This document shows, one piece after another, positions 7,371 through 42,742 of a DNA stretch of 64,000 nt; position 1 is the stretch's first letter, and each line of letters begins with the position of its first letter. The notes under the pieces were generated by a model that saw only the letters and a program-made list of their open reading frames with translations, was not told where the DNA came from and did no database searches. Source of the DNA: an uncultured Gammaproteobacteria bacterium (GTDB lineage Bacteria > Pseudomonadota > Gammaproteobacteria > GCA-001735895); contig CAMYLU010000013.1 in the NCBI GenBank assembly GCA_947259485.1, forward strand, positions 25,065 to 89,064, given 5' to 3'. The position numbers and the translations under genes were made by a program.

Positions 7371-10205
7371 TTGGCTGATTACAAATCTACATTAAATTTA
7401 CCTGACACCGAGTTCCCGATGCGCGGCAATCTCGCCAATCGTGAACCCGAGCGTCTGCAGAAGTGGCAGGACCAGGATCTTTACCAGGTCATCCGGAATG
7501 CGCGTGTCGGTCGCAAACGTTACGTGTTGCACGATGGCCCACCCTATGCCAACGGCGATATTCACATCGGCCACGCGGTCAACAAGATTCTCAAGGACAT
7601 GATTGTCAAATCACGGACCCTGAACGGTGAAGATGCGCCCTACGTGCCGGGCTGGGATTGTCACGGATTGCCGATCGAGCACCAGGTGGAAAAGAGTTTA
7701 GGCAAGGTTGGCGTCAAGGTCGAGGCCGATGAGTTTCGCCAGGCCTGCCGCGACTATGCGCTCAAGCAGATCGACCAGCAGCGTGTCGATTTTATCCGGC
7801 TCGGCGTGCTGGGTGACTGGTATAAACCTTACTTGACGATGAACTTTGATACCGAGGCTAACATCGTGCGCGCGGTTGGCAAGATTATCGAGAACGGGCA
7901 TGTCGTGCGTGGCGATAAACCGGTCCACTGGTGTATTGATTGTGGTTCGGCGCTGGCCGAGGCCGAGGTCGATTACAAGGACAAGACCTCGCCCGCGATC
8001 GACGTGCGTTTCGCGGTAATCGATGAAGCCGCATTCGTGGCTGCGCTGGAAAGCGAAGCCGAAGATCCCGGCGAAGGCCCGATATCGTTACTGATCTGGA
8101 CCACTACACCCTGGACTTTACCCGCAAACCTCGCGGTTGCACTCAACCCCACAGAAGAGTACGTGCTGCTGCAGGCCGAGACCGGGCTGGGAACGGAACG
8201 CCTGTTCCTTGCCAGCGACCTGATGCAGGATGCCCTCAAACGTTATGGGATCGACGACTATAAAATTGTCGCACGTGGCAGGGGTGAAGTTCTGGAGCGC
8301 CATCGCCTGCGGCACCCGTTTTATGATCGAGAGTCGATGATTGTCATCGGCGATCACGTTACTCTCGAAGCCGGCACCGGGGCCGTTCACACCGCGCCGG
8401 GTCACGGCCAGGATGACTTTGTTCTCGGTAAGAAATACGGTCTCGAGATTTATAACCCGGTTGGCGGCAATGGTTGTTTTCTGCCCGCTACCGAATTGTT
8501 TGCCGGCGAGCATGTATTTGCCGCCAACGATCACGTGATCGAGGTACTCAAGGAAAAAAATGCGCTGATTCATGTCGAGAAATACCAGCACAGTTATCCA
8601 CATTGCTGGAGACATAAATCGCCGATTATCTTTCGTGCGACCCCGCAATGGTTCATCAGCATGGAACAGGCCGGTCTGCGTGATCTCGCCATGGCCGAGA
8701 TCAAGAAAGTTCGCTGGGTTCCCTCCTGGGGACAGGCACGCATCGAAAGCATGATTGAAAACCGGCCGGACTGGTGTATCTCGCGGCAACGGTTCTGGGG
8801 CGTACCGATTCCGTTATTTATGCATCGCGAGACCCAGGCATTGCATCCAAGGACTGCAGAACTGATCGAAGTCGTCGCCCAACGCATCGAGGAAAATGGA
8901 ATCCAGGCCTGGTTTTCACTCGAGGCGAGCGAACTGCTCGGCGACGAAGTCGACGACTACGTCAAGCTCGGCGACACCCTCGACGTCTGGTTCGATTCGG
9001 GCACCACCCACTACAGCATCCTGCAACAGGATGACCGTTTCACTTTTCCCGCCGACATGTATCTCGAAGGTTCGGATCAGCACCGCGGCTGGTTTCACTC
9101 GTCACTGCTGGCTTCCTGCGCGATGCATGGCCAGGCACCTTATCGCCAGGTGTTGACGCATGGCTTTACCGTCGATGCCAAGGGCATGAAAATGTCAAAG
9201 TCGGTCGGTAACGTTATTGCGCCGATCAAGGTCACCAAAACCCTCGGCGCTGATATTCTGCGGCTGTGGGTTGCCGCTACCGATTACTCCGGCGAAATGT
9301 CGATTTCGGACGAAATTCTGAAACGCACGGCAGATTCCTACCGCCGCATCCGCAATACGCTGCGCTTCCTGTTGGCCAATACCAATGGTTTCGATCCCGC
9401 CAGCGATGCGGTTGCCGCCACCGACCTGCTGGCCCTGGATCAATGGATCGTCGCGGAAACATTTAACCTGCAAACAGAATTGCAGGCGCACTACGAGGAC
9501 TATCATTTCCATATCGCAATTCAGAAAATTCATAATTTCTGCTCGGAAACGCTCGGCGGATTTTACCTGGACGTGATCAAGGACCGGCAGTACACCACGC
9601 AGGCTGATTCGCTGGCGCGTCGTTCCTGCCAGACCGCGATGTACCACGTCACCGAGGCAATGACCCGCTGGATCGCCCCAATTTTGAGTTTTACCGCCGA
9701 CGAAGTCTGGGAAAACATGCCCGGTGAGCGCGATGATCTCGGCGTCTTCACCGCCGAATGGTACGACGGCCTGTTCCCCTACTCGAACGCCGAGATCGAT
9801 CCTTCGGTCTGGGATTCCGTCGAGCAGGTGCGCGCGGAAGTCACGCGCAAACTGGAAAGCCTGCGCCAGGATGGCAGCATCGGCTCCAGCCTCGATGCCG
9901 AGGTTACGATTCTCGCCAACCAGGCACTGATCGATGAACTGCAGGTTATCGGTGACGAATTACGTTTCGTCATGATAACCTCTGCGGCGACCATGGCGGT
10001 ACTGGATGCAACACAAAGCGAGGAGGTGGTCACGCTGCGCAATGGCAACCGCATTTCGATACAGGCCAATCCAAGCAATCATCAGAAATGTGCGCGCTGC
10101 TGGCATCACCGCGAGGAAGTCGGTAGTGATAGCGATCACCCGGAACTCTGTGCGCGCTGTATCGTCAACGTCGATGGTGATGGTGAACAACGCCGCTACG
10201 CCTGA
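7371..10205 (+). CDS. ileS: Isoleucine--tRNA ligase
   Basis: 944 aa. The N-terminus (M)[25 protein letters not shown] matches IleS. A KMSKS motif and C-terminal zinc-finger cysteines are present. Apparent TTG start sits 4 nt after the ribF stop. Confidence 0.93.
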
Positions 10206-10223
10206 GATGACCTGTAACCTGCT

Positions 10224-10715
10224 ATGAATATGGCGTCTCCACAACTTCGATGGTTATGGATCAGCCTGATCGTGGTCATACTCGACCAGGCCACCAAGCA
10301 GATTGCCGAAGCACAGTTGACCCCTCATCAGGCGGTCAACCTGTTCCCGTACTTCGACTGGTACCTGACCTACAACACCGGCGCCGCGTTCAGTTTTCTC
10401 GCCAATGCCGGGGGCTGGCAACGCTGGTTGTTTACCGTGATTGCAATTGTCATCAGCATCGTTATCGTACAATGGGTCAGGAAACTGCCGGCGGAAGACA
10501 CGCTGACCGCGGCATCATTGTGCCTGATCCTCGGTGGCGCAATCGGCAATCTAATCGATCGCGTTTACCTCGGCCATGTTATCGACTACATACAGGTATG
10601 GCTTGGATCCTATCCATTCCCGGCGTTTAATATCGCCGATGCCTCGATTAGTGTCGGTGCGGTCCTGTTGATCCTGAGCAGTTTCTCCGGTTTCGGGAAA
10701 ACCACGTCCGGGTAA
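10224..10715 (+). CDS. lspA: Lipoprotein signal peptidase (signal peptidase II)
   Basis: 163 aa, four TM segments, conserved ..DQ.TK.. and ..FNIAD.. motifs. Position after ileS. Confidence 0.9.
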   Translation: MNMASPQLRWLWISLIVVILDQATKQIAEAQLTPHQAVNLFPYFDWYLTYNTGAAFSFLANAGGWQRWLFTVIAIVISIVIVQWVRKLPAEDTLTAASLCLILGGAIGNLIDRVYLGHVIDYIQVWLGSYPFPAFNIADASISVGAVLLILSSFSGFGKTTSG

Positions 10716-10719
10716 TTTC

Positions 10720-11178
10720 ATGGGCATGATAGAGCGCAACAGTCGAGTCACACTTTTTTACCGGATCGGTTTAACCGATGACCAGGTACTGGAGGATAAT
10801 TTTGATGATGAACCGATGACGGTTACCCTTGGCTGCGGTGAAATGGCCGAGGGACTGGAACTGGCATTGATTGGACTGAAGGCAGGCGACGAACAGACGA
10901 TCGACATTGGCCCCGATCTCGCCTTTGGTTATATCGACGAAACCCTGTTTCGTGCCCTGGCTCGAACTGAATTTGATTCTGACATTGAACTGGAGCCGGG
11001 ACTGATCATCGAATTCGTAACCGGAGAAGGGGAAACGCTTCCGGGCACCATACTGGATTTTAATGACAGCGAAGTCCGGGTTGATCTGAACCATCCCCTG
11101 GCTGGTCAAACGGTTCGCTATAGCGTTAAGATTGTCGCTGTTGATGACGATCCTGACGAACCGAAGGTCCTGCATTAA
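10720..11178 (+). CDS. fkpB: FKBP-type peptidyl-prolyl cis-trans isomerase (FkpB/SlpA-like)
   Basis: 152 aa FKBP fold (..[45 protein letters not shown]..). Canonical position between lspA and ispH. Confidence 0.8.
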
Positions 11179-12107
11179 TGGAAGTCCTGCTTGCCAATCC
11201 ACGTGGATTTTGTGCCGGCGTCGACCGTGCTATTGAAATCGTCGAACGCGCGTTACAGCTTTTTGGCGCGCCGATCTACGTGCGCCATGAAGTTGTGCAT
11301 AACCGCTTCGTCGTCGATGACCTCAAGCAAAAGGGAGCGATATTTGTCGAGGAACTCGACCAGATTCCCGACGATAATTACGTCATCTTTAGCGCTCATG
11401 GTGTTTCCAGGGCAGTACAACGAGAAGCCGAGCGTCGCCAGCTCAAGGTTTTTGACGCCACCTGCCCCTTGGTGACAAAGGTACACATGGAGGTCAGTCG
11501 CTATAGTCGCAAGGGCATTGAAACCGTGCTGATCGGTCACAGGGGACATCCCGAAGTCGAGGGCACCATGGGTCAGTACGACCGTACACATGGCGGTAAA
11601 ATTTACCTGGTCGAATCTGCTGAAGACGTGCGCAAACTAAAAGTGCAAAATCCGCAAGGGTTGCGTTTCGTAACACAGACAACCTTATCCAAGGACGACA
11701 CCGCGATCGTCATCGATTGTCTGCGCGAGACTTTCCCTGACATCCAGGGACCGAAAAAAGATGACATCTGCTATGCCACTCAAAATCGACAGGATGCGGT
11801 CAAGCAACTTGCCGAGCACTGCGACCTGATCCTGGTCGTCGGCTCCAGGAATAGTTCCAACTCGAATCGATTACGAGAAATCGCCAGTAATAAGCAGATT
11901 GAAGGTTACCTGATCGACAATGAAGATGACATCAAGCCCGAATGGCTTGAAAATAAAACCTGCGTCGGTGTGACAGCAGGTGCCTCCGCGCCTGAACTAC
12001 TGGTACAGAATGTTGTCAGTTTTTTACAACGGCATGGGGCCGGTAATGCATCTTCACTTGGATTTACCGAAGATGTGATCTTCCCACTACCAAAGCCCCT
12101 GAGATAG
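11178..12107 (+). CDS. ispH: 4-hydroxy-3-methylbut-2-enyl diphosphate reductase
   Basis: 309 aa. [22 protein letters not shown].. and conserved Cys and His residues of IspH/LytB. Confidence 0.93.
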
Positions 12108-16164: not shown

Positions 16165-18249
16165 TTATCGGTTAGCAGCAAGCGACGCAATGCGCAGCCG
16201 AAATTCCGCCCCAGGCTCACAGTTAACAACATCGACTTCGGTTTGCATTGCACTTGCAAGTTGACGTACCAGCGCCAGGCCGATGCCGGTGCCGACGGTT
16301 TCACGCGTAAGCTCGTTCTCGGAGCGGTAAAACAGTTTGAAAATCTTCTTCATCTGGTCCGGATCGATACCGGGTCCGTAATCGCGCACCGAAAACTGAA
16401 TCTTGCCGTCCTGCATTTGCTGACAGCGAATGTCGATTCGCTTTTGGGCACCGTTAACGGAAAACTTGACCGCATTATCCACCAGGTTGATAAAAATCTG
16501 GATGAACCAGTCGATGTCAATTTTAATTCGAGCCGACTCAACTTCCTGTGTCCCCGTAATCAGCAGGTCGAACTCCGAGGGTTCGAGTTGCGATTCGAGG
16601 CGTGGTTTGAGCTCCGCCAGCGCCTCGCCAACGGTCATCTCAGTGAGCGTGCCAGCCTGCTCGTTACGAGACATACGCGCCAGCTGCAGTACATTATTGA
16701 TCAGCCGCGTGAGTCGTTCCGCCTCGTAAAAAATAAAATCATAATAGGTTTTACGTTTTGCCTTGTCGGCCCAGCCCTCGCGCAGCATTTCTCCATACAT
16801 TCGAATCGATGTCAGTGGAGTTTTAAGTTCGTGGCTGACCGCGGAAACAAAATCCTGTTGCTGCCGCGCCAGGGCGAGCTGACGTTGACCCAGTCGAAGC
16901 AGCATCAGGCAACCACCCACCAGCACGATCGCGAGCACCACCGCCGACCAGATGATGACCTGACCACCGGCGCCGACCGGCAATCTCGCCAGTGCATAAA
17001 TCAGCTCGATATCGCCAAACGGCGCAATCAAACGGCTCTGGTAGAGCAACTCGTTACTCACCTGCCCGGTACTGGGGCGATACTGTCGACTGTAATCGGC
17101 GGCAAAGTTTTCCAGGATCGAGCCGCGGTAGGCGACAATCAGTTTACTCATCGATGACAGGCTCGATTCGCGAAACGCCGGTGCAATCAAGCCTTCAATG
17201 AAATTCGCCTGGTCGATCAGAATACCCTGCACGTAGCGTTCATTGCTATGCCAGACACGCCGGAACAGGACGAAGTGCCCGCTGTCGAGCAGCGCAAATT
17301 CCATCGGCTCGACTTCACTCTCGAATGTCTGAATCCGGATCGCTCGCTGATCCAGCATCGGCTCGGCAAACACTACCTCGTTATCCACAGTTTCAGCGGC
17401 TCTTTTCTCAAGGCTTAGCGCCTGCTCGAGCATGGCCTGTGGCAGGTTTACCTTTTCCTTGCGCGAACGCCGTGATTCCGCCTGTTTTGTCTCCTCCCGT
17501 CGCTGCATCTCCGGTTTGGCTTCGGCGGCTATCTGGAAGCTGTCTTCGAGTTTAAGGTCCTTGACCTGGTCTACAGGTGCGCTGCTTTCAGCAGGGGCAT
17601 TTAATTTCCGCGTGGTCAATTCATCGAAGGCCGACTGTCCCTCGGTATCACCATCATCCATCGCGATACTCGAACTCATGCTGTCGACCTCGGTGGTCAG
17701 ACTCGGCGCATCGGAGCGCGCCGCTTGGGCTACCTCTTCCTCGGCAAGAATTTCACCGACCGCCGGTGATGCCGCGAGATCACTTTTGCCGACCAGGCGG
17801 TTTTGATCGAGAATGCCGCGAATGCGACCTTCCTGCTGCTCGCGCTGTTGTAGTTCGGATGACGAAATGCCATAGCTGGACGCATTGGCTTCGGGCACGG
17901 TTGGGGTACGCAGCTGCCCTGCAGAATCGACCTGGAAATAACCCAGCAAGCCTGGCACCTCGGCCTCCAGCGGGAACTGTGACAGTGGTGAGCGCTGCAG
18001 AAAGGCGGACCCTTCAGAGCCGCTGACATTGAGAAATTCATAGTCGCTGATGGGTCGGCTTTCTTCGCGCTCAATCAGGTTTCGAAATTCGCTGTCGATG
18101 CGTAAGCTCAACTCGCGGGCAAGCTGCTGATGCTGGTAGAAAGCCTCCCATTTCAACTGCCCGTAGGCATGGTAAACCAGGATCGAGGTCGGTAACGCCA
18201 GCGCCACGAAAAACAGTACCAGCAACAGGGTGAGGCGCCGCTGGGTCAT
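16165..18249 (-). CDS. Sensor histidine kinase with a large (~380 aa) extracytoplasmic sensing region
   Basis: 694 aa. TM1 at residues ~7-27, a long periplasmic domain with an E/Q/S-rich low-complexity stretch, and TM2 around residue 430. HisKA box ..SAVSHELKTPLTSIRMY.. is followed by HATPase N/G boxes (..NLVDNAVKFS.., ..DYGPGI.., ..GTGIGLAL..). Confidence 0.85.
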   Translation of the reverse strand: MTQRRLTLLLVLFFVALALPTSILVYHAYGQLKWEAFYQHQQLARELSLRIDSEFRNLIEREESRPISDYEFLNVSGSEGSAFLQRSPLSQFPLEAEVPGLLGYFQVDSAGQLRTPTVPEANASSYGISSSELQQREQQEGRIRGILDQNRLVGKSDLAASPAVGEILAEEEVAQAARSDAPSLTTEVDSMSSSIAMDDGDTEGQSAFDELTTRKLNAPAESSAPVDQVKDLKLEDSFQIAAEAKPEMQRREETKQAESRRSRKEKVNLPQAMLEQALSLEKRAAETVDNEVVFAEPMLDQRAIRIQTFESEVEPMEFALLDSGHFVLFRRVWHSNERYVQGILIDQANFIEGLIAPAFRESSLSSMSKLIVAYRGSILENFAADYSRQYRPSTGQVSNELLYQSRLIAPFGDIELIYALARLPVGAGGQVIIWSAVVLAIVLVGGCLMLLRLGQRQLALARQQQDFVSAVSHELKTPLTSIRMYGEMLREGWADKAKRKTYYDFIFYEAERLTRLINNVLQLARMSRNEQAGTLTEMTVGEALAELKPRLESQLEPSEFDLLITGTQEVESARIKIDIDWFIQIFINLVDNAVKFSVNGAQKRIDIRCQQMQDGKIQFSVRDYGPGIDPDQMKKIFKLFYRSENELTRETVGTGIGLALVRQLASAMQTEVDVVNCEPGAEFRLRIASLAANR

Positions 18250-18944
18250 TGCTCGGCAAGCATCAGGCGATAGCCGGCACCGCGCACCGTGACAATGGCT
18301 TCGGGGTTGGCGGGATGGATTTCAATTTTGCGGCGCAACTTGGCAATATGAATGTCGACGGTACGGGTTTCTATTTCCATGTGATTGGCATAGCCCCAGA
18401 CTCGTGCGAGCAGTTCCTCACGCGATACCGGACGCTCCGATTGCTGGCAAAGATAGTGCAGCAGGTCCATTTCACGGCGCGTAAAAACGGTGTCCCCGGC
18501 GCATAGATTCTCGGTATCGATGACGAGACCATTGTTGAGTTTGATTTCCCGAACCGAGGCTTCATCGAAACCCGAACGTCGCAATACCGCCTCCACGCGC
18601 AGTACCAGCTGTGTTACCGAAAAAGGCTTGGCGACGTAATCGTCAGCGCCCAGGGTAAGGCCCTGGACGATATCTTCGTCACTCGATTTTGCGGTCAGCA
18701 TGATAACGGGCTGCTGGCGGTCCTGTTGGCGGATACGATTACAGATTTCAAAGCCATCGACACCTGGCAACATGACATCGAGCAGAATCAGGTCAAATTG
18801 CCCGCTTAGCGCTTTGCGCAGACCGTCATCACCGTGATCGGCGGTGTCAACCTCGTAGCCATGGTAGACAAAAACATCGACCAGCCCGCTACGTATTGCG
18901 GCCTCGTCTTCAACGATCAGCAAGCGCGCTTTCTGCGCCATCAC
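18246..18944 (-). CDS. OmpR-family response regulator (REC plus winged-helix DNA-binding domain)
   Basis: 232 aa. ..LLIVEDEAAIRSGL..DLILLDVMLPGVDGFEI..MLTAK.. receiver domain and C-terminal ..RVWGY....RTVDIHIAKLRRKIE.. trans_reg_C. Its stop overlaps the kinase start by 4 nt. Confidence 0.9.
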   Translation of the reverse strand: MMAQKARLLIVEDEAAIRSGLVDVFVYHGYEVDTADHGDDGLRKALSGQFDLILLDVMLPGVDGFEICNRIRQQDRQQPVIMLTAKSSDEDIVQGLTLGADDYVAKPFSVTQLVLRVEAVLRRSGFDEASVREIKLNNGLVIDTENLCAGDTVFTRREMDLLHYLCQQSERPVSREELLARVWGYANHMEIETRTVDIHIAKLRRKIEIHPANPEAIVTVRGAGYRLMLAEQ

Positions 18945-19107
18945 ATTTTATCCTTAATAAACACACCACAATCCTAGCATTCCAGTTCGTCGGCTATGTA
19001 AATTTTTTGTAAATCCACCGCACCAGGTTTTACCAAACTCTGCCTGTTTTAATCCCCGATCCTGACCCAGAATTACTGCATCTTTCAACCACAACGGAGC
19101 AATCAAA

Positions 19108-19638
19108 ATGGCATTGGTAACCCGACTATCACGACTGTTTCAGGCCGATTTCCACGCGGTCCTCGATCGCATCGAGGAACCCGACCTGCAACTCAGGCAG
19201 GCGGTCCGTGAAATGCAATTCACGCTCGACCAGGATCAACAACGCCTGAAGCTACTGCAGCACGAGGCTGCCCAACTCGACAAGGCGGCTAAGGCTACCT
19301 CGACAAGCCTTGAAGGCTACGACGAAGAGCTGGACATCTGCCTGGCCGCGAAAAAAGACGACCTGGCGCGCGATTTAATTCGTCGCAAACTCGTCAGCGA
19401 AAAACAGCTGCAGACATTGCAGCAGCAGTTCACCAGCGTTGAATTACAGCGCCAGAATCTTGAACAGCAAATCGACGAACAAAACCAGCAATTAACCAGC
19501 ATGAAGCAAAAACTCGAGCTGCTGGTCAGCGACGATGAAGGTTTCGGCAGGGGCGAATTCAACCACGCTGACACGATCCGCGGCGAGGAAATTGAAATTG
19601 CTTTACTGCGCGAAAAACAACGGAGGGCCAAAGCATGA
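19108..19638 (+). CDS. PspA/IM30 (phage shock protein A / Vipp1) family protein
   Basis: 176 aa all-helical coiled coil. The N-terminus MALVTRLSRLFQADFHAVLDRIEEPDLQLRQAVREMQFTL parallels PspA [40 protein letters not shown]. Shorter than E. coli PspA. Confidence 0.72.
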   Translation: MALVTRLSRLFQADFHAVLDRIEEPDLQLRQAVREMQFTLDQDQQRLKLLQHEAAQLDKAAKATSTSLEGYDEELDICLAAKKDDLARDLIRRKLVSEKQLQTLQQQFTSVELQRQNLEQQIDEQNQQLTSMKQKLELLVSDDEGFGRGEFNHADTIRGEEIEIALLREKQRRAKA

Positions 19639-20213
19639 ACAAGAGCATGAAGACCCCCGGAATCATTGATGGCATCATCGTCGCAATCGCGATCAGTCTA
19701 GGCGCCGGAGCAGTGAGCCTGGTGCTGGGCGGATTTGTCGCCTACGCCACGTTGTTCAACCTGCTGCTTTGCACGGCAACACTGATCTACCTGCTTTACC
19801 TGCTAAGGCGCAGCAATGCCCGCGTCGGACGCGTAGTCGTTATTGCCGGCTGGGGTCTGGTAAGTCTCGCCGGCTGGTTCTTTAACATAGCGCCATTCGA
19901 ACAGGTACTGGTTCAGGCCGGCATTATCTGGCTGACACGCTCGCTTTATTTTCATGCCTCGCTGTTTACCGCGGCGCTCGATTTCGGGTTGGTTTCAGTC
20001 GGTCTTGCAGCAAGCGCCTGGGCCATGGTCAACACCGGCAGTCTCGCCGCGGCCCTGTGGAGTTTCTTCCTGGTCCAGGCCCTGTTTTGCTGGCTCCCGG
20101 ATCTTGCGCGCAAACAGTCCGCCGAGGCCTGTCGCCAACAGCATGATCAATCATCATTCCAAACCGCACACCGTGTCGCCCTCGACGCGGTGCGCAAACT
20201 TACCCAAACCTAA
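19635..20213 (+). CDS. Hypothetical polytopic membrane protein co-transcribed with the PspA-like gene
   Basis: 192 aa with about five hydrophobic helices. ATGA start/stop overlap with the PspA-like gene. Confidence 0.6.
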   Translation: MNKSMKTPGIIDGIIVAIAISLGAGAVSLVLGGFVAYATLFNLLLCTATLIYLLYLLRRSNARVGRVVVIAGWGLVSLAGWFFNIAPFEQVLVQAGIIWLTRSLYFHASLFTAALDFGLVSVGLAASAWAMVNTGSLAAALWSFFLVQALFCWLPDLARKQSAEACRQQHDQSSFQTAHRVALDAVRKLTQT

Positions 20214-20229
20214 CCCCGGAGATAATCCA

Positions 20230-21438
20230 ATGAAAAGTAAACCATTTAATCCCAGAATAATCGCACTGGCACTACTCGTCGCCACCGCTACCGGCATCGC
20301 ATTGTTCCCGACCCTGCAAAAGGCACAGGCGACACATAACACGCATACTACCCACGTAGTGCCGCAGCAGAGTCATCGCATCGAAGTGGTTTTCGTGCTC
20401 GACACCACCAGCAGCATGAGTGGCCTGATCCAGGCGGCCAAGGAAAAGATCTGGTCGATTGCCACAACCATGGCCTCGGCGCAGGAAAATCCCGACATCA
20501 AGATGGGACTGGTTGCGTTTCGTGACCGTGGAGACGCTTACATAACAAGAGTCTTCGACCTGTCGGAGGACCTCGATTCGATGTACGCAAGCCTGATGGA
20601 CTTCCGCGCCCAGGGGGGCGGTGACGGCCCCGAAAGCGTCAACCAGGCACTTTACGATGCGATCCACAGGATTTCGTGGAGTAACGACAGCAACGTATAC
20701 AAGGTTGCGTTCCTGGTCGGCGATGCACCCCCGCACATGGATTACCATAATGACGTCAAGTACCCGGTCACGCTCGCCGCGGCCGCATCAAAGGGGATCG
20801 TTGTCAACGCAATCCAGAGTGGGCAGCACGAGTACACCCGCCCTGCATGGCAGCAAATTGCAGCGCTGGGTCACGGTGAGTATTTCCAGGTCGAAGACTC
20901 CGGTAACACGGTGGCCGTCTCAACCCCGTTCGACGAAGAGTTGTCCAAACTTGCCGCCGAACTCGAAGACACCCGCCTTTACTATGGAGATGAGGCGACC
21001 AAAAAGGCACAACAGGCAAAGCTCGACGCCAATGCCAGGCTGCGCGAGGAATTATCAAGCGAAGCACTTGCACGACGCGATACCTTCAATGCGACCGCAA
21101 GCGGCAAGGCGAACCTGCTTGGAGAAAGTGAACTGGTTGATGCGATTGCATCAGGCCGGGTTGAACTCGACGAAATCAAGCAGGAAAACCTGCCTGCCAC
21201 AATGCAGGCGATGGCACCGGAAAAGCAGATGGAAGTGATTACTGAACAGGCACAACGCCGTGACCAGCTACAGCAGGAAATTAAAAGGCTGTCCGAATCA
21301 CGCAGCAACTTTATCAAGGAAAAGGTTGCCGCCGAGGGTGGTGCCGAAGATTCACTGGACGAAAAGATATATCGCGCGGTGAAGGACCAGGCCGCTGCCA
21401 TAGGCTTAACCTACGACAGCGATAGCGCGAGTTACTAG
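20230..21438 (+). CDS. Secreted von Willebrand factor type A (vWA) domain protein with a C-terminal coiled-coil region
   Basis: Start chosen at MKSKPFNPRIIALALLVATATGIALF (signal peptide), with a GGAGA Shine-Dalgarno 8 nt upstream. MIDAS motif VVFVLDTTSSMSG (DxSxS) plus downstream T and D residues. The listed ORF 19954..21438 is this frame extended upstream over the membrane-protein gene and was trimmed. Confidence 0.72.
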   Translation: MKSKPFNPRIIALALLVATATGIALFPTLQKAQATHNTHTTHVVPQQSHRIEVVFVLDTTSSMSGLIQAAKEKIWSIATTMASAQENPDIKMGLVAFRDRGDAYITRVFDLSEDLDSMYASLMDFRAQGGGDGPESVNQALYDAIHRISWSNDSNVYKVAFLVGDAPPHMDYHNDVKYPVTLAAAASKGIVVNAIQSGQHEYTRPAWQQIAALGHGEYFQVEDSGNTVAVSTPFDEELSKLAAELEDTRLYYGDEATKKAQQAKLDANARLREELSSEALARRDTFNATASGKANLLGESELVDAIASGRVELDEIKQENLPATMQAMAPEKQMEVITEQAQRRDQLQQEIKRLSESRSNFIKEKVAAEGGAEDSLDEKIYRAVKDQAAAIGLTYDSDSASY

Positions 21439-21480: not shown

Positions 21481-21864
21481 CTACTTGGCCTGCGCCACCA
21501 GGCGCGGGCCTTTTTTTATGCCGCCACCACGCAACAGCAGGTAAAGTTCATGAACAAGTCGCTCATTGGTCTGAATTTCGAGCCATTTCTCCTTCGACAC
21601 CTTGCGTTTGACCAGTTCCCGTACGACTTTGAGCGTAAAGGAGTCGCTCTCCAGGTTGGGATCTGGATGCCCGACGCTGATGTTCTGTATGGTACGACTC
21701 AGAATTAAAGTGGTCGATTCGTCGGCATCCTGGTAGAGCCTGGTGCGAATGCGGTTATCGGCGAGTAATTCTTCGGTGGCCTTGCGCTGGCTTCGCATCT
21801 GGATGCTCAGCACGATCAACAGGCCCAAAGCTAATAATGAAATCAATGTTGCAACTAGGTTCAT
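21481..21864 (-). CDS. Hypothetical membrane-anchored protein (single N-terminal TM)
   Basis: 127 aa. N-terminal MNLVATLISLLALGLLIVLSI helix then a charged soluble region. Its 3' end overlaps the plus-strand terminator, so the call is tentative. Confidence 0.4.
   Translation of the reverse strand: MNLVATLISLLALGLLIVLSIQMRSQRKATEELLADNRIRTRLYQDADESTTLILSRTIQNISVGHPDPNLESDSFTLKVVRELVKRKVSKEKWLEIQTNERLVHELYLLLRGGGIKKGPRLVAQAK
21487..21517 (+). terminator. Rho-independent terminator after the vWA gene
   Basis: GGCCTGCGCC-acca-GGCGCGGGCC followed by T7. It is embedded in the 3' end of the minus-strand ORF 21481..21864. Confidence 0.5.
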
Positions 21865-22046
21865 GGTCTTCCCGCTATAGTGTTATATGTCGTGAAAAAT
21901 GAGTTTAGCAGCGCGGATTCGAGGCATTAACGATAAGTAAAAAATGTCGCATTTTTGCCGGGGAATCTATTACCAATGGATCAATTTTCAAACCCGGTAA
22001 ATTGATTTATATTCCCTTGATTGTAAACCTGTCGAGGATACAGGGC

Positions 22047-23075
22047 ATGAATAAAGCCGGAAGTCTCCTGAAAATCCCGGTTTTGATGATAGTACTCGCA
22101 TTGTTGCTGCCAGCCGCCAATGCCAGCGAAACCCGTGGCAAGATTACCGGCGGCGTATTGCACGAGCCCCCTGCCTGGTTTAAAAAGAGTTTCCTCGAGA
22201 TCGCAGACGATGTTGACGACGCCAATGAAGCTGGCAAGCACGTGTTGCTTTTTTTCGAGCTCAATGGCTGTCCCTACTGCGACCGCATGCTGGAAGAGTC
22301 CTTCGAAGCCGAGCCCCTGAGCAGTTATATTCAGGCCAATTTCGATACCATCGCGATCAATATCCAGGGCGATCGCGAAATCGCTTTTAACGAAGAAATC
22401 TCGGTTACCGAAAAAGAGCTGGGCGAGATCCTGAAGGTTTACTCGACACCAGCCCTGCTGTTCCTCGACGCTGATAATAAAACCATCGTACGCGTTAACG
22501 GCTACCGTGCACCCGAACGCTTTAAGCTGGTACTCGAATTCGTCGCTACCCGGTCGTACCAGACGACCAACCTGGCGGATTACCTGCAGGCCAAACACGA
22601 CAGGAATGTTTACCAGCTGCGCGCAAATTCACTGTTCAGCGAAGTGACCGATCTTTCAAGCGTCGAGGGTCCGTTAATGGTTATTTTCGAAGATGGAAGT
22701 TGCTACGATTGCAACGAGTTTCATGATGGCATTCTGGCGCACAAGCAGGTGCGCGAAGAAATCGCGCCGTTTACTATCGTGCGCCTCGATGCCGATTCAA
22801 ATGCAGCGATCAAGGATGTCTATGGCAACGCAACAACGCCCGCCGAACTGGCCAGCAAACATGAAATGATATACCGCCCGGGGGTACTGGTTTTCGATGA
22901 TGGAAACCTGGTACGGCGCCACGACAGCCTGACTTTCCCCCATCATTTCAAGGAAAGCATGCGCTTCGTCGCCGGCGGGTTTTACCAGCAAACCGACTAC
23001 CGCAACTATTCCCTGCAACGCACCGAGGAATTGCTCGCCAACGGCGTTGTCATCGACCTCGGTCGCCCTCAGTAA
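22047..23075 (+). CDS. Secreted thioredoxin-fold protein with two CxxC motifs (tandem thioredoxin-like domains)
   Basis: Start at MNKAGSLLKIPVLMIVLALLLPAANA (signal peptide), with GAGGA 7 nt upstream. ..HVLLFFELNGCPYCDRM.. (CPYC) and ..MVIFEDGSCYDCNEF.. (CYDC). The antisense ORF 21981..22598 is rejected. Confidence 0.7.
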   Translation: MNKAGSLLKIPVLMIVLALLLPAANASETRGKITGGVLHEPPAWFKKSFLEIADDVDDANEAGKHVLLFFELNGCPYCDRMLEESFEAEPLSSYIQANFDTIAINIQGDREIAFNEEISVTEKELGEILKVYSTPALLFLDADNKTIVRVNGYRAPERFKLVLEFVATRSYQTTNLADYLQAKHDRNVYQLRANSLFSEVTDLSSVEGPLMVIFEDGSCYDCNEFHDGILAHKQVREEIAPFTIVRLDADSNAAIKDVYGNATTPAELASKHEMIYRPGVLVFDDGNLVRRHDSLTFPHHFKESMRFVAGGFYQQTDYRNYSLQRTEELLANGVVIDLGRPQ

Positions 23076-23178
23076 CAGACTGTGCTGGTTAAAACCTTCC
23101 TCCGCAAGCTTCGTTATTCGAGGAACCCGAACGAAGGCTGAATCTGGAAGAAATCAATCCGCTTACTATACTCGGTGC

Positions 23179-25758
23179 ATGCTTTTAAACGGTATCGTCA
23201 TGGGCCGAAATTTCCCGAGTATCTTTTTGCTATTAACTATCTTTGCGTTGGCTTCGTTAGACAGCCAGGCGGAACTGTTCAAGTGGGTCGATGAAAATGG
23301 CAAAATTCATTACTCGGATAAAAAACCGGATGAGAAAATAGACTCGAAGGTAATCCCCAAAAAAAATAAATCAGCCGGTGATTATCAGCAGGCAACCTCG
23401 GCTGCATTAAAACCCATTATTCGACCCTACGAAAAAACGGCAAGAAAACTTCATCTGCTCGACACTCGTTATTTATGGAAGAAAGAATCCGAGGTTAGCC
23501 AGACCAGTAAAATCGGCGTTTACCACACTGGTAAAGGGTGCACCACGCGTGGCGCAATAAACACACCCGATGTGTTCGTCCACCATCGATCCCTGTTCCC
23601 GGACGAATCGAGGCTAGCTCACCAGATTAACAAGATCATTAACGGGCTGGACTACGAATCCGAAAAAACCGAAAAGTATCGCCTGCTTGGTCGTCTGAAA
23701 AAAACCGGCGGCTTGAGTCTGCACGCCGAAATCATTGCGATGAATTTGAACACCTGTGCGCCTAACATCCGCAAGAGCGAGCGCCTCAAGCCGATCGATA
23801 AAATATCAGCAAGCAGGTTTACCAAGAATCGTGTCAGGCTGCAGGTTAACTGGCAGCTAAAAACAAATCGGGACCAGGATGTTATCTACGAGGCTGTGAC
23901 CCCGGGCAATTACAACGGGTGGAACCAGTCCAGCTCTTCGAGTACCGCGATCAAAAATGCGCTCGAATCCGCCGTACTGACACTTTTTTCGGACAGGGAT
24001 TTCATCGACAAAATCCTGGTGGAAGAGGATGGTAGCAGCATCGGAGAGATTCAAAAAACAGGCTTAAAACCGATTAGTTCAGACGCAAAAACCAGGACCA
24101 GAAAACTGTTTGTTGCGGTCAATAGCAAGGACTGGATTAAGAACAAACTACCCGAAGCAGAAATAGGCAGTATCCTGTTTGGCGAAAAATGTGCAGCGAA
24201 AAAACCGTTACCGCTGAATATCGCTCTCAACAACCAAAAATGGCTGACTTCGAATGCACAGCAAACCAGCAAGGCAATTGTAAAAAAAATCAGGCCGCTC
24301 GGTTACTCGGTTAATCCGGCTTCGGCTGATACGCTTTCAAAACTGGAAAATTCGGGCGGCTACAGCCTCAATGCCAGGCTGGTAAAGGTTACCTACGATG
24401 CCTGCGCGCCTTCGTTATCCTCATCGGCCAAGTACAAGCCAATCGATAAATCCTCATTGCGCAAATTGACTCGCAACAGGCTGCAGGTCTGGATCGAATG
24501 GACCCTGAAAACAGATCGTAATCAAAAACTGCTGTATCACACCAATACCATGGGTTTTGCCGGCAGCTTACTGGCTGATTCGAGGGGTGCTGAAGCCATG
24601 TCAGATGCCATCGGCATGGCCGCAGAACAGCTTTTTGCTGACGGTGATTTTATCGAACTGATAACTTTAAAAGCCAGAAATTTACCTGCTGAAAATGCGT
24701 TTACCGCAAAACAGGATCCATCGCTACGTGGCATAGTCATGTCGGGCGAGGAGGAAGCACAGAATCTCTTCGTTGTTTCGGAGAGTAATCCGTGGGCTCG
24801 TATCCCGGCGAAAAAAATGATCGGGTATTACGCCTACGGTACGGACTGCGCTCCGTTTAAGGAACGCAATTGGCCGCAGGCGCTCAACGATCATCCACGA
24901 AGCTTCCCGGATTCAGGTGAAATAATCGGCACCGAATTGAAAGTGGTAAAAAGCCTGGGATATCCCGCCCAGGTCGCGGACGCGTACAGCGTCGTCAATA
25001 TGAAGCGTAAGCTCGGCGGCTATAGTCTGCATGCGGACATCGTCGATATACGCTTCGATTCCTGCGCCCCGAATTTAGATGAAAACATTATTTTTTCGGA
25101 TCGAAAAATATCTGCCAGTCAGTTCAAACGACATCGAGTGATTATCACCGTTAACTGGAAGCTGGTCGGTGCCACTGACCAGGAAGTTCTATTTCAGCTA
25201 ACCACCGAAGGCGTTGCCGATAGCTGGCTGTTGAACGCCAAGGCCAAAAAGATTCTGACCATGGCAATCAAAAACGCGACCACTCGATTGTTCGCCAACG
25301 GGGAATTTGTCGCCAATCTGATGAACCATAAAGAGCAGGAAAAAGGTTTTTTCAGCAACCTTTTTTCGTTTATGGATGAAGATGGTGAAACCGGTTCCGG
25401 GATGACCCAGAGCCTGGGTAACCCGTATGTCATACAGGCGCATGCGGCCCAGGCACTTTCAGAAATCAATGCGCTTAAGGTAGGCGTCCTCCAGCACTTC
25501 ATGATGGAGGGGGACTGGCCAGATAGTCTTTCTGCAATTGGTTATTCAGAATCGTTGTTTACCAATAGCGACACCATTGCCTACGTGAATTTGCAACCCG
25601 ATGGCAGCATGGTGGTCGAACTCAGGGAGCTGTTTGGTAACGATAAAATAATAACCTTGAGTCCCGACGCAGACGATGGAAATCTGAGCATGAATCGATG
25701 GCAGTGCAGCAGCAACCTGGCTCAGAAATACTTGCCGAAAAACTGTGAAGGTCTGTAA
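23179..25758 (+). CDS. Large secreted multidomain protein: DUF4124-type N-terminus, three ~115-aa internal repeats each with a conserved CAP cysteine, and a C-terminal type IV pilin-like globular domain
   Basis: Signal peptide (M)GRNFPSIFLLLTIFALASLDSQA then ELFKWVDENGKIHYSDKKP (DUF4124 hallmark). Repeats at about nt 23659-24021, 24319-24681 and 24979-25326 share ..GGYSL.A.IV.....CAP....PIDK.S...F.RNR...V.W.LKT.R.Q..L..(25-50 variable aa)..LF.(D/N)G(D/E)F(I/V)... The tail ..YVIQAHAAQALSEINALKVGV...DKIITLSPDADDGNLSMNRWQCSSNLAQKYLPKNCEGL resembles the pilin headgroup (compare PAK PilA ..GKIITLTRTAADGLWKCTSDQDEQFIPKGCSR). The gene is much lower in GC than its neighbours. Start uncertain between 23179 and 23200. 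Confidence 0.7.
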   Translation: MLLNGIVMGRNFPSIFLLLTIFALASLDSQAELFKWVDENGKIHYSDKKPDEKIDSKVIPKKNKSAGDYQQATSAALKPIIRPYEKTARKLHLLDTRYLWKKESEVSQTSKIGVYHTGKGCTTRGAINTPDVFVHHRSLFPDESRLAHQINKIINGLDYESEKTEKYRLLGRLKKTGGLSLHAEIIAMNLNTCAPNIRKSERLKPIDKISASRFTKNRVRLQVNWQLKTNRDQDVIYEAVTPGNYNGWNQSSSSSTAIKNALESAVLTLFSDRDFIDKILVEEDGSSIGEIQKTGLKPISSDAKTRTRKLFVAVNSKDWIKNKLPEAEIGSILFGEKCAAKKPLPLNIALNNQKWLTSNAQQTSKAIVKKIRPLGYSVNPASADTLSKLENSGGYSLNARLVKVTYDACAPSLSSSAKYKPIDKSSLRKLTRNRLQVWIEWTLKTDRNQKLLYHTNTMGFAGSLLADSRGAEAMSDAIGMAAEQLFADGDFIELITLKARNLPAENAFTAKQDPSLRGIVMSGEEEAQNLFVVSESNPWARIPAKKMIGYYAYGTDCAPFKERNWPQALNDHPRSFPDSGEIIGTELKVVKSLGYPAQVADAYSVVNMKRKLGGYSLHADIVDIRFDSCAPNLDENIIFSDRKISASQFKRHRVIITVNWKLVGATDQEVLFQLTTEGVADSWLLNAKAKKILTMAIKNATTRLFANGEFVANLMNHKEQEKGFFSNLFSFMDEDGETGSGMTQSLGNPYVIQAHAAQALSEINALKVGVLQHFMMEGDWPDSLSAIGYSESLFTNSDTIAYVNLQPDGSMVVELRELFGNDKIITLSPDADDGNLSMNRWQCSSNLAQKYLPKNCEGL

Positions 25759-33289: not shown

Positions 33290-34714
33290 ATGGGCGAGGA
33301 AATTCAAAAAACGCACTTTGAGCAGGCCGACTTCGATCGTTTCCAGGTACGCCTGGAACAGGAAACCGAGGTGGTGCGTTCGCTGTTCGCAAAACGGCAG
33401 TTCGACAATTCGAGTCGTAAACTCGGCTACGAGCTCGAACTTTGCCTGGCCGACGCCGACGGGCATCCGAGCAAAAACAATATCGAAATTATCGAGGCCA
33501 CCGGAAACCCGTTGTTCACTTCCGAACTCGCCAGGTTCAACATGGAGATCAACGGAAACCCGTTTCCTTATGAAAGCAGCGTTTTTAACCGGGTCGAAGC
33601 CGACCTGAACGACCTGTTTCAACAGGCTGAAGCCTGCGCACATAAATTTGATACCCAGATCGGCATGTTCGGTGTATTCCCGAGCGTTACACCTGAGCAC
33701 CTGAATCCCGACGGTTACATGACCGAGTTACATCGGTATAACCAGCTCAATCAGCAATTGCTAAACATGCGCGGACAATCAATCCGTCTGCATCTCGAAG
33801 GTGACGATATCCTCAAGGTCGAAAAGGACGACGTCATGCTCGAAGCACTCGCGACTTCGCTGCAGATTCACCTGCAGGTACCATTTGATGAAATCGTCCC
33901 GACTTACCATGCCGGGTTGTGGTCGAGCATGCTGGTGCTGGGCGCGACTGCGAATTCACCGCTGGTGCTCGGCAAGTGCTGTTGGCACGAATCGCGCATC
34001 GGCATCTTCAAGCAAGCGGTCGATACCCGCAATCCCCAGGAGATCGAGGATCAAATCATTCCCCGGGTCCATTTAGGCAAGCGCTACATCGATTCGCTGC
34101 TTGACCTGTTCGAAGACAATTTTTATTACAGCCCGATCCTGCCGGAAGTACTGGAACGACCCGTTGAAGATCTGCACCACCTGTCTCTGCACAATGGCAC
34201 CATCTGGCGCTGGGTGCGCCCGATCATCGCGCGCAACACGGCGGGCGAGTATCACCTGCGCCTGGAACTGCGCGTAGCGCCGTCGGGTCCAACCCTGATC
34301 GATACGCTCGCCAACATCGTGTTTTATGTAGGTCTGACCGAAGGCCTGAAATCGCAGGGTGATGACCTGACCAGAGTTCCTTACGAAAACCTTGAAACCG
34401 ATTTTTACCGTGCCGCGCGCAAGGGCCTTAATGCCGAGGTACACTGGACCGATGGTGAGGTCCTTCCCCTGAAACAGGTCTTACTCGAACGCGCGTTACC
34501 ATTAGCACGGTCATATTTCAAAAAGGCCGGGATCGAAGATACCGAGCGCTGGCTCGATGTAATCAAGGCCCGGGTAGAACGAGAAGCCACCGGTTCGCGC
34601 TGGATACTTCGTCACTGGAAACAGTTCGGCGATAGCGCCCGCCTGGTATGCGATTACATCGAACAGGCTCGCACCAACCAACCGGTCCACCTGTGGCAGG
34701 ACCCTGGAACATGA
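33290..34714 (+). CDS. Glutamate--cysteine ligase family 2 (GCS2 / carboxylate-amine ligase) protein
   Basis: 474 aa. ..SRKLGYELELCL.. and overall architecture of plant-type and GCS2 gamma-glutamyl ligases. The exact substrate cannot be inferred. Confidence 0.65.
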   Translation: MGEEIQKTHFEQADFDRFQVRLEQETEVVRSLFAKRQFDNSSRKLGYELELCLADADGHPSKNNIEIIEATGNPLFTSELARFNMEINGNPFPYESSVFNRVEADLNDLFQQAEACAHKFDTQIGMFGVFPSVTPEHLNPDGYMTELHRYNQLNQQLLNMRGQSIRLHLEGDDILKVEKDDVMLEALATSLQIHLQVPFDEIVPTYHAGLWSSMLVLGATANSPLVLGKCCWHESRIGIFKQAVDTRNPQEIEDQIIPRVHLGKRYIDSLLDLFEDNFYYSPILPEVLERPVEDLHHLSLHNGTIWRWVRPIIARNTAGEYHLRLELRVAPSGPTLIDTLANIVFYVGLTEGLKSQGDDLTRVPYENLETDFYRAARKGLNAEVHWTDGEVLPLKQVLLERALPLARSYFKKAGIEDTERWLDVIKARVEREATGSRWILRHWKQFGDSARLVCDYIEQARTNQPVHLWQDPGT

Positions 34715-36804: not shown

Positions 36805-37779
36805 CTACTCTTTTACACAATGGTAATAGCTATTCGATATCGTTTCCCAGTTCTCTTTCGAAAATGGAACAGAACTTACATAACCCGGGAGGCAGGCGGT
36901 TGAAATATACTTTCTCGAGGATAAGCCCGGACTGAAGCGTTCTTCGGGCTTTATTTTAGCTTCAATTACCGGCCCGGTATCGGCTTGAAACCGAATAGAT
37001 ATTGTTTCACCGCAAGAATTATCGACCCAGAGATCGTCTCCCTTGAAGTTCCAGTCCGAGCAATGCTCCATGTGCGGTGACAGATGCTCTGTCGGGCCCG
37101 GGCACAGCCCATAAAACAGCGCCTTCGTTAAAAAAAATGACGTTCTAGAATGAAGTTGCAACAACTCGGGATAATCGTCAGCAAATGCGTCTATTGACGC
37201 AATCAAAGTCCGAGATTCGGCATCTCTCTCAATACAGGGATAATTGGGTATGTAGTCCGACTCCGATGGAAACATCAGATCCATCACGAGTTGTGTATAG
37301 CCCTGAAACAGTCCATACGCCCTGTCGTTAAGTTCCCAGTCAATGGTTCGCATCTTGACCTCAAGATTAAACCCCTCGCAATAGGAACTGCTGACCTGAC
37401 TATTCGGCGTGCATTTTCCAACAATCTCGGCCAAGTCCTGATCATGCTGTTTCTGTGTTTCGTAGTCACAATCTTCACAGGTTTGCTGGAGATTTTGAAT
37501 CTTTCGCCGTGCGGCCATTATGCCGGAGCAAAACGATAGGTCTGTATTATTGACAGATTCACACGCCGTGACAACTCGCCAGACGTACGACACCCCATCG
37601 ATGTAACCTTCACAAAATTCTCTCTTGTTCGTATCTATCGATTTACACCATCTCAGAAACTCTGCCGAGGACTTAGGTCCTAAGCCCTCTACTGAAGTTT
37701 GGGCAAAAGATGACTGAAAATAAAAGCCACCCACGCCGATCAACAGTATGGCAAACAGACCTATAAAGTAACGATACAT
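36805..37779 (-). CDS. Hypothetical secreted cysteine-rich protein (about 20 Cys)
   Basis: 324 aa. Signal or TM anchor MYRYFIGLFAILLIGVGGFYF. Many paired cysteines (CEGYIDG, CESVNN, CEDCDYE..). Low GC. No homolog recognised. Confidence 0.5.
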   Translation of the reverse strand: MYRYFIGLFAILLIGVGGFYFQSSFAQTSVEGLGPKSSAEFLRWCKSIDTNKREFCEGYIDGVSYVWRVVTACESVNNTDLSFCSGIMAARRKIQNLQQTCEDCDYETQKQHDQDLAEIVGKCTPNSQVSSSYCEGFNLEVKMRTIDWELNDRAYGLFQGYTQLVMDLMFPSESDYIPNYPCIERDAESRTLIASIDAFADDYPELLQLHSRTSFFLTKALFYGLCPGPTEHLSPHMEHCSDWNFKGDDLWVDNSCGETISIRFQADTGPVIEAKIKPEERFSPGLSSRKYISTACLPGYVSSVPFSKENWETISNSYYHCVKE

Positions 37780-41977: not shown

Positions 41978-42742
41978 TCAAATCTGGTTATATAAGCTTT
42001 GACCTTTTGAGAACTTTCTCGAAATACTCAATGAAATCGATTCGATGCCATACTCCAGGCGCTGAATTGCCTCCGCTTTTTGAATACTAATAGATTCAAG
42101 AGATTCAAATCCGTGCTCCTCTGGCGATTCAATTTTTATGCCTGGAAGCGACAGATCCATAGCCCAACCGTACTGGACAGTACCCGCATATATCACCTTT
42201 GTACTCACTGCGGAGACCAGGCGAAGCGCAACCGTCTCGTTGGGGCCGAAACCGTCATCATAGCGCTTGTCAAATGTGCTTGATACGTATCCAATAAACA
42301 CAGGAGCAATGTCAAGATAGGCATCGGCAACTTCACTATCAAATCCCAGGTAGTTGTCTTTTAAATGAAGACTATTTTTTCGGTCTGCTGGCAGATCGAT
42401 CACTTTAAAACCGCTTTCCTCAAGATGCCGCTTCAGAAATTTCTGCATGGTACTATTGAAACCCTCAAACTCCAGTTCAGATTCCCAATAACCTGGCGTA
42501 TCGGGGATTTCAAGCAACGCAATTGTTTTAACAGATATAAGCTCGTCCGCATTGATTTCAGTTTCAGCTATGGGAGGTTGGATTCCCGTATGAGCTATGG
42601 AAGGTTGGCCTGGCCCACTCGAGAGGTAGTCCAAAGCGGCCCACTCGGCACCTACTACGACAACAGCTGGTGCCAATGCCTCACAACCAGACAACCAGAT
42701 GGCAGTAAAAATCGATAAGGCTATGCGAAAACGTTGTTTCAT
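41978..42742 (-). CDS. Hypothetical lipoprotein
   Basis: 254 aa with lipobox ..AIWLSGC. No recognised domain. Low GC. Confidence 0.55.
   Translation of the reverse strand: MKQRFRIALSIFTAIWLSGCEALAPAVVVVGAEWAALDYLSSGPGQPSIAHTGIQPPIAETEINADELISVKTIALLEIPDTPGYWESELEFEGFNSTMQKFLKRHLEESGFKVIDLPADRKNSLHLKDNYLGFDSEVADAYLDIAPVFIGYVSSTFDKRYDDGFGPNETVALRLVSAVSTKVIYAGTVQYGWAMDLSLPGIKIESPEEHGFESLESISIQKAEAIQRLEYGIESISLSISRKFSKGQSLYNQI

Follow-up and report, generated by a model that had tools for sequence, protein, structure and literature searches.

We analysed a window of 64,000 nucleotides (nt) from contig CAMYLU010000013.1 of an uncultured Gammaproteobacteria bacterium, and number positions from its first nt. 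The gene of interest lies in an open frame at 23047..25758 (+); its likely start, ATG at 23179, gives a protein of 859 amino acids (aa), and a rival start, ATG at 23200 (MGRNF..), is the one used by most homologues. From N- to C-terminus the protein has a signal peptide, a DUF4124 domain, three copies of a repeat that we call the CAP domain, an acidic linker and the globular head of a type IVa pilin. This is a new architecture, assembled from known folds plus an undescribed domain family. Searches of open-access literature found no description of a pilin-head fusion of this kind, in agreement with the original prediction, made from the sequence of the window, that such a fusion was undescribed.

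The start codon and a Sec (type I) signal peptide take up residues 1-30 (23179..23268, +). From either start the peptide has a positive N-region, the hydrophobic core IFLLLTIFALASL and an A-x-A-like site, with cleavage predicted between ..ALASLDSQA and ELFKW. The earliest Cys of the protein is residue 121, and there is therefore no lipobox; exactly eight Cys are present in the mature form, which at 829 aa, ~92 kDa and an isoelectric point (pI) of 9.0 is not large enough to be called 'giant', as it had been. The gene product is Sec-exported and non-lipidated, with four predicted disulfides. Charge is split along the chain: the first two repeats are strongly basic (net +9 and +13), whereas the linker and head are acidic (pI 4.4, net -8). 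A scan around the gene for promoters and terminators gave nothing above shuffled expectation.

Directly behind the signal peptide stands DUF4124 (ELFKWVDENGKIHYSDKKP..; 23269..23373, +), with Pfam PF13511 matching residues 22-65 (E 2.4e-9, 37.7 bits against a cut-off of 22; this and the two other Pfam matches of the protein lie above the curated cut-offs). NCBIfam gave no matches for the protein. In the AlphaFold2 model of the full-length chain (mean predicted local distance difference test score, pLDDT, 80.1; predicted template modelling score, pTM, 0.50), DUF4124 scores low in pLDDT and forms a beta-hairpin spanning residues 34-46, the repeats reach ~90 and the head ~78, and both linkers (residues 51-75 and 718-747) come out disordered. 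The signal and the Pfam matches bear out the anatomy originally proposed, with a signal peptide followed by an N-terminal DUF4124, three repeats and a type IVa pilin head.

The three repeats align with one another by hhalign at probabilities of 99.9-100% (E 2e-36 to 2e-41) over ~200 columns, and the repeat unit is therefore ~200 aa long rather than the ~115 aa first described, although the pattern GGYSL..CAP..PIDK..RNR..W.LKT on which that description rested does recur in all three. Repeat 1 covers residues 78-290 (23410..24048, +; Cys121/Cys193; pI 9.5, net +9), repeat 2 residues 296-505 (24064..24693, +; Cys338/Cys409; pI 9.8, net +13) and repeat 3 residues 520-716 (24736..25326, +; Cys557/Cys629). 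Each has two invariant Cys, one in G-x-x-C and the other in the C-A-P motif noted earlier; that every repeat has a second Cys had been overlooked. At the end of repeat 3, ahead of the acidic linker, is a hydrophobic motif, GFFSNLFSF (residues 723-731; 25345..25371, +), that is as conserved as the best domains (mean pairwise identity 0.53 vs 0.10 for the flanking linkers) and has pLDDT <50. The acidic linker itself (residues 732-747; 25372..25419, +; pI 4.4, identity 0.10) falls within the disordered stretch 718-747, where pLDDT is <50.

Repeat 2 modelled alone (pLDDT 89.3, pTM 0.86) has an LptE/PqiC/PelC-like alpha/beta fold, a predicted fold that we assign to the repeats as a whole. The best matches among solved structures, with their scores, were Cj1090c (Campylobacter LptE, 9.0), XCC0632 (DUF330, 9.0), PqiC (8.6), CsgG (8.6), PelC (8.4), the FlgT ring protein (7.6), LptE (7.3), LpoB (7.3) and HpaA (7.1); sequence identity was 15% or less throughout, no single member was clearly closest, and the top matches were all outer-membrane lipoproteins. 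By sequence, Pfam LptE (PF04390) matches residues 393-487, in repeat 2 only and marginally (E 3e-5, 25.1 bits vs a cut-off of 23), and matches 9/26 homologues at E 0.1 or better; the repeat profile had no match by sequence in the PDB, solved LptE included. The fold assignment therefore rests on the predicted structure and the marginal Pfam match, and kinship is at the level of fold or superfamily. This fold group of outer-membrane lipoproteins, in which PqiC stands for DUF330 and FlgT for its N-domain, is the Pfam clan LppaM. We regard the CAP domain as a new sequence family, absent from current domain libraries, whose predicted fold is LptE/PqiC/PelC/CsgG-like.

LptE plugs the LptD barrel, and its gene usually lies in a leuS-lptE-holA neighbourhood. 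The CAP repeats share with the LptE group the alpha/beta fold and, for repeat 2, a score just above the Pfam threshold, but differ in having no lipobox, a length of ~200 aa, a conserved disulfide and CAP motif of their own, and tandem triplication. The window gene, moreover, lies outside any lpt, pqi, pel or csg context. Identity as LptE was considered and rejected on the missing lipobox, the marginal HMM (hidden Markov model) score for one repeat, and neighbours that are a thioredoxin-like gene and bioB.

The pilin head occupies residues 748-859 and, with the stop codon, positions 25420..25758 (+), comprising an alpha1-C helix (749-777), four strands and a D-region (pI 4.4, net -8); the 30 residues ahead of it are acidic and disordered. 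Pfam Pilin (PF00114) matches residues 754-856 over nearly its full length (HMM positions 3-107 of 108, E 2.4e-9, 38.5 bits vs a cut-off of 22), and a profile of 26 homologues matches the solved Pseudomonas aeruginosa K122-4 PilA (1hpw/1qve, E 1e-4) and Neisseria PilE (5kua). The likeness to pilins that had been noticed by eye, terminal disulfide loop included, is thus recovered by profile and structure searches. The alignment to solved pilins begins at about residue 24 of the mature pilin, and it follows that alpha1-C and the whole head are present and alpha1-N is absent. The D-region disulfide loop, C843-SSNLAQKYLPKN-C856 (25705..25746, +), aligns with the K122-4 PilA loop C-TSNADNKYLPKT-C at equal length. 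Its Cys pair (887/900 in the 903-aa numbering used earlier, where its conservation had been named as a check) is kept in 25/26 homologues, with a loop of 14 residues in 23 of these 25; the sole exception, P0038, has no head at all.

Type IV pilins are defined by the N-terminal helix and by prepilin processing, and in true pilins variable surfaces are expected and the D-loop is variable. The window protein resembles type IVa pilins (PF00114; K122-4 and PAK PilA, PilE) in its alpha1-C, G-x-W-P turn, four-stranded sheet and 12-residue disulfide-bonded D-loop, but has neither a class III leader nor a hydrophobic alpha1-N, absences that had been correctly called. Instead, an ordinary Sec signal lies 720 residues upstream of the head, and a regular-expression search for the prepilin motif G-[FMY]-[TS]-[LM]-[ILV]-E had no matches in the window or at any family locus. 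Because leader and alpha1-N are missing, there can be no PilD processing, no inner-membrane retention and no polymerisation into a pilus; a functional pilin subunit is ruled out on these two tested features, the head and D-region notwithstanding. The family also departs from type IVa pilins in having no adjacent pil genes and in keeping its head conserved instead of variable. Homologous heads share a mean pairwise identity of 0.40, as against 0.39-0.52 in the repeats and 0.10 in the linkers, and the D-loop, at 0.52, is the best conserved part of the head. On these figures the head is under purifying selection comparable to that on the other domains.

The full-length, three-repeat architecture was found in 40 clusters, down to 25% identity, all from metagenomes or metagenome-assembled genomes (MAGs), under the NCBI labels 'pilin' or 'DUF4124 domain-containing protein'; DUF4124 is present in all 26 of the three-repeat homologues that were aligned. 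Among species genomes its range is confined to uncultured Gammaproteobacteria and the Gamma 3 endosymbiont of Olavius algarvensis (67% identity). The carriers found are all uncultured and mostly from marine sediment; one MAG contig, JAOTXY010000102, is 97% identical to the window. A repeat-only HMM searched against 1.84 billion representatives hit 307 clusters with E no worse than 1e-3, 93 of them with E no worse than 1e-10, so that the repeats do form a detectable family, as had been supposed. Two proteins from the representative search (P0155 and P0159) were discarded as spurious, being PKD or repeat proteins. Profile searches with the pilin head and with the one-repeat alignment brought back 2 and 7 proteins respectively, none of them from outside the family.

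Most of the clusters hit by the repeat HMM are proteins of ~410 aa (range ~400-440 aa) with a single repeat and the same two ends; of 63 one-repeat representatives, DUF4124 was found in 56 and Pilin in 54. Neither these relatives nor the protease subfamily described below figured in the original prediction. The nearest one-repeat proteins resemble repeat 1 and the distant ones are equidistant from all three repeats, from which we deduce that the single repeat is ancestral and that triplication is derived, in one clade. At one locus (L014), a 430-aa one-repeat form (9953..11245, +; DUF4124, CAP and pilin head, with a repeat resembling repeat 1) fills the slot of the window gene, between the thioredoxin gene and bioB, showing that repeat number changed in place.

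The CAP domain also occurs in other company. In a subfamily of ~700 aa (P0132, P0148, P0163, P0184 and P0185; L087 10001..12139), DUF4124 and one CAP domain are followed by Trypsin_2 (DegP-like) with an intact His/Asp/Ser triad, then a helical region, and at the C-terminus a degenerate pilin alpha1-C-like helix (hhalign 96%, E 2.4e-9) without the Cys loop. A remote CAP-like and Trypsin_2 protein, P0161 (L089 8001..9329), has a lipobox, VFSGC, in place of DUF4124; this hints that the module may be attached either by DUF4124 or, equivalently, by a lipid anchor. Finally, P0038 (734 aa) has the three repeats and ends just past the GFF..L motif, lacking the acidic linker and the head.

In close relatives the gene order is histidine kinase, response regulator, PspA, membrane protein, VWA protein, small open reading frame (ORF), double thioredoxin, window gene, bioB, comF and fumA, and the slot between thioredoxin gene and bioB is syntenic in all of them. 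The gene 103 nt upstream (22044..23075, +) encodes an exported protein with Thioredoxin_2 twice and the motifs CPYC and CYDC. It keeps its position in all close relatives, whether of three- or one-repeat form, and not in distant ones, and may be a lineage-specific redox partner of the eight-Cys protein. At 48.1%, the GC content of the window gene is indeed below that of its neighbours (52-58%), as is its third-position GC (GC3, 0.556 vs 0.61-0.69). The horizontal acquisition that had been read from this difference is not supported, however: synteny is kept, gene GC ranges across lineages from 37% to 57% and tracks the host, at or a few points below the flanks, no homologues turned up in phage and plasmid collections, and models of defence proteins gave no match. 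Composition and expression level are the likelier causes of the low GC.

Our reading of the family, put forward tentatively, is of a scaffold, anchored in the envelope and made up of DUF4124 and the basic repeats, that presents a non-polymerising pilin head as a conserved binding module, possibly with the pilus machinery as its partner. In this scheme the strongly basic CAP domains, together with DUF4124, would anchor or scaffold the protein in the periplasm near the outer membrane, a placement suggested by the solved proteins of this fold, all of which are outer-membrane-associated lipoproteins that dock on an envelope machine or bind an anionic glycolipid, and by the lipobox that P0161 bears where DUF4124 would be. 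The acidic head would be held out on a flexible, disordered acidic tether and would bind its partner via the unusually conserved D-loop. Most speculatively, that partner could be the type IV pilus (T4P) machinery or the pilins themselves, which normally recognise pilin heads, and the protein could then modulate pilus assembly or retraction, as TfpC does in Neisseria. It counts in favour of this reading that the head is conserved, that charge is split between basic repeats and acidic head, that even the protease subfamily keeps a pilin alpha1-C-like helix, and that a one-repeat relative lies 4 nt downstream of a PilZ-domain gene.

The pilus machinery is proposed as a possible partner because TfpC, the sole experimentally studied DUF4124 protein that our literature search located, stabilises type IV pili. 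TfpC (NGO0783) of Neisseria gonorrhoeae is periplasmic and is needed for pili to stay extended, and a pilT mutation suppresses its loss (PMC7593972). The same protein lends one piece of indirect support to the originally suggested decoy for the pilus machinery, which may still apply. TfpC and the window protein are alike in that a Sec signal is followed directly by DUF4124, a linker and a C-terminal interaction domain. DUF4124 is nonetheless their only shared domain: mature TfpC is 147 aa long, with a proline-rich linker and a charged, helical coiled-coil C-domain, and has neither CAP domains nor a pilin head. A second comparison is with TsaP, the secretin-associated protein of type IVa pili, which consists of LysM and two FlgT C-domain-like beta-rolls (bioRxiv 10.1101/2020.05.29.123786). 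The likeness is one of architecture only (a periplasmic protein that is anchored through its N-terminal domain and has a disordered linker as well as globular domains in tandem), since TsaP has LysM and its tandem domains are the FlgT C-domain beta-roll, not the LptE-like fold. LysM had no Pfam match in the window protein, no sequence kinship to TsaP was found, and an analogy of the repeats to its 'FlgT-like' domains was dropped as a matter of layout.

A more specific version of the proposal, which we hold to be doubtful, makes the family a dedicated periplasmic 'pilin mimic' near the outer membrane that docks at the secretin vestibule or alignment complex, or on retracted pilins, and gates or tunes extension and retraction, with DUF4124 a general targeting module to that machine, in TfpC as well. 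If true, it would establish a new class of T4P regulators and a function for DUF4124.

Several observations weigh against the scaffold-and-head proposal. The genomic neighbourhoods do not speak for a pilus: no pilus assembly genes (pilBCD, pilMNOPQ) were found within 8-10 kb at about a dozen family loci or in those stretches of the 64-kb window that were annotated, and no T4P or prepilin gene adjoins any family member examined. The surroundings of distant members are unrelated to one another; outside the close relatives, none of the loci examined has a conserved neighbour or operon partner. DUF4124 is present on many unrelated periplasmic proteins, and the authors of the TfpC study themselves warn that the connection of the domain to T4P need not be a general one (PMC7593972). 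P0038 shows that the head can be missing in a natural variant. The periplasmic location is one that we infer, and the arrangement of the domains relative to one another is uncertain in the model, given its pTM of 0.50.

A different explanation, to which we give only slightly less weight, is that the protein handles envelope lipid, lipopolysaccharide or polysaccharide, or is structural, with the CAP domains doing the work and the head a reused structural or oligomerisation module unrelated to T4P. The fold matches to LptE, PqiC, PelC and CsgG and the marginal Pfam LptE match speak for such a protein, as do the strongly basic repeats and the lack of linked T4P genes. The module's association with a DegP-like protease, and in P0161 with a lipobox, fits as well, as does the headless P0038; and a one-repeat relative adjoins genes for a polysaccharide deacetylase and a glucosaminidase. 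This explanation does not readily account for a head that is kept in most of the family, with the D-loop its best conserved part, and the gene lies outside any of the lpt, pqi, pel or csg contexts that might be looked for.

In P. aeruginosa pilins the D-loop is the receptor-binding loop, and a protein with a loop of the same length as that of K122-4 PilA, close to it in sequence, might instead be a secreted or surface adhesin or lectin, exported for example via type II secretion, whose D-loop binds host, particle or abiotic surfaces, perhaps with a contribution from HpaA-like domains. The fold matches do include the Helicobacter pylori adhesin HpaA, the carriers are sediment bacteria and a worm symbiont, and four predicted disulfides would suit an extracellular protein. 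We nevertheless regard this as unlikely: no secretion or anchoring signal was found beyond the Sec peptide, a surface protein would be expected to vary and the head is conserved, DUF4124 proteins of the TfpC type are periplasmic, and the HpaA match is no better than those to periplasmic lipoproteins.

Far less probable is the idea, raised in the original prediction, of a decoy against phages, here a horizontally acquired one whose pilin head intercepts pilus-specific phages. The lower GC of the gene and a head without polymerisation capacity lend it some colour, but synteny in close relatives and a GC that tracks the host in every lineage tell against acquisition, no phage or plasmid homologues were found, PADLOC gave 0 matches for the protein and three neighbours, and the neighbours are housekeeping, not defence, genes. 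Nothing points to display on the surface or to secretion, and phage tail fibres are out of reach of a periplasmic protein. That the fusion is an artefact, whether of misassembly or of an upstream ORF running on into a decayed pilin gene, is suggested by its unusual architecture only, and is scarcely credible: 40 clusters, reaching down to 25% identity and assembled independently from several sources, have the same uninterrupted architecture, and one-repeat versions have the same ends.

With the scaffold-and-head proposal, a family that is conserved and Sec-exported and retains nothing of a pilin but its head would represent reuse of that head as a stand-alone binding domain, in which the D-loop, variable in true pilins, has become the best conserved part. 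As TfpC controls pilus stability, the family offers a testable route to the function of DUF4124 and possibly a new pilus accessory factor. The CAP domain (~200 aa with one predicted disulfide, occurring once or three times per protein and, in one subfamily, with a DegP-like protease) is of interest in itself: it is not confined to lipoproteins, most members having DUF4124 and not a lipid anchor.

Further upstream in the window, the block at 16165..21438 comprises a histidine kinase and response regulator (-), followed by PspA/IM30, a four-helix membrane protein and a secreted VWA protein (+); it has the look of an envelope-stress system and is syntenic in all close relatives. The annotated genes of the window are otherwise of housekeeping type (aceK, murJ-ribF-ileS-lspA-fkpB-ispH and an ABC-2 transporter). 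At the thresholds used, Pfam had no match for five sizeable ORFs, at 2583..3371 (-), 33290..34714 (+), 36805..37779 (-), 41978..42742 (-) and 21481..21864 (-).

Elsewhere, the gene of the distant one-repeat protein P0099 (L085 10001..11257, and likewise L086) is preceded by a 90-aa PilZ-domain gene (9725..9997) that ends 4 nt before it, with a polysaccharide deacetylase gene lying downstream, and in the vicinity of P0030 are a GGDEF-EAL gene and a T2SSE ATPase; these are the only hints of a c-di-GMP or pilus-type association in any neighbourhood of the family. Outside the DUF4124-CAP-pilin-head family, an unrelated DUF4124 gene in a Thiotrichaceae MAG (L046, ~10001..10138, +) adjoins two prepilin-like genes, at 10897 (-) and 18068 (-), whose products contain GFTLIELMIV.. 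and GFSLLEVLIA.., the only matches to the prepilin motif among the loci scanned and a further association of DUF4124 with pili.

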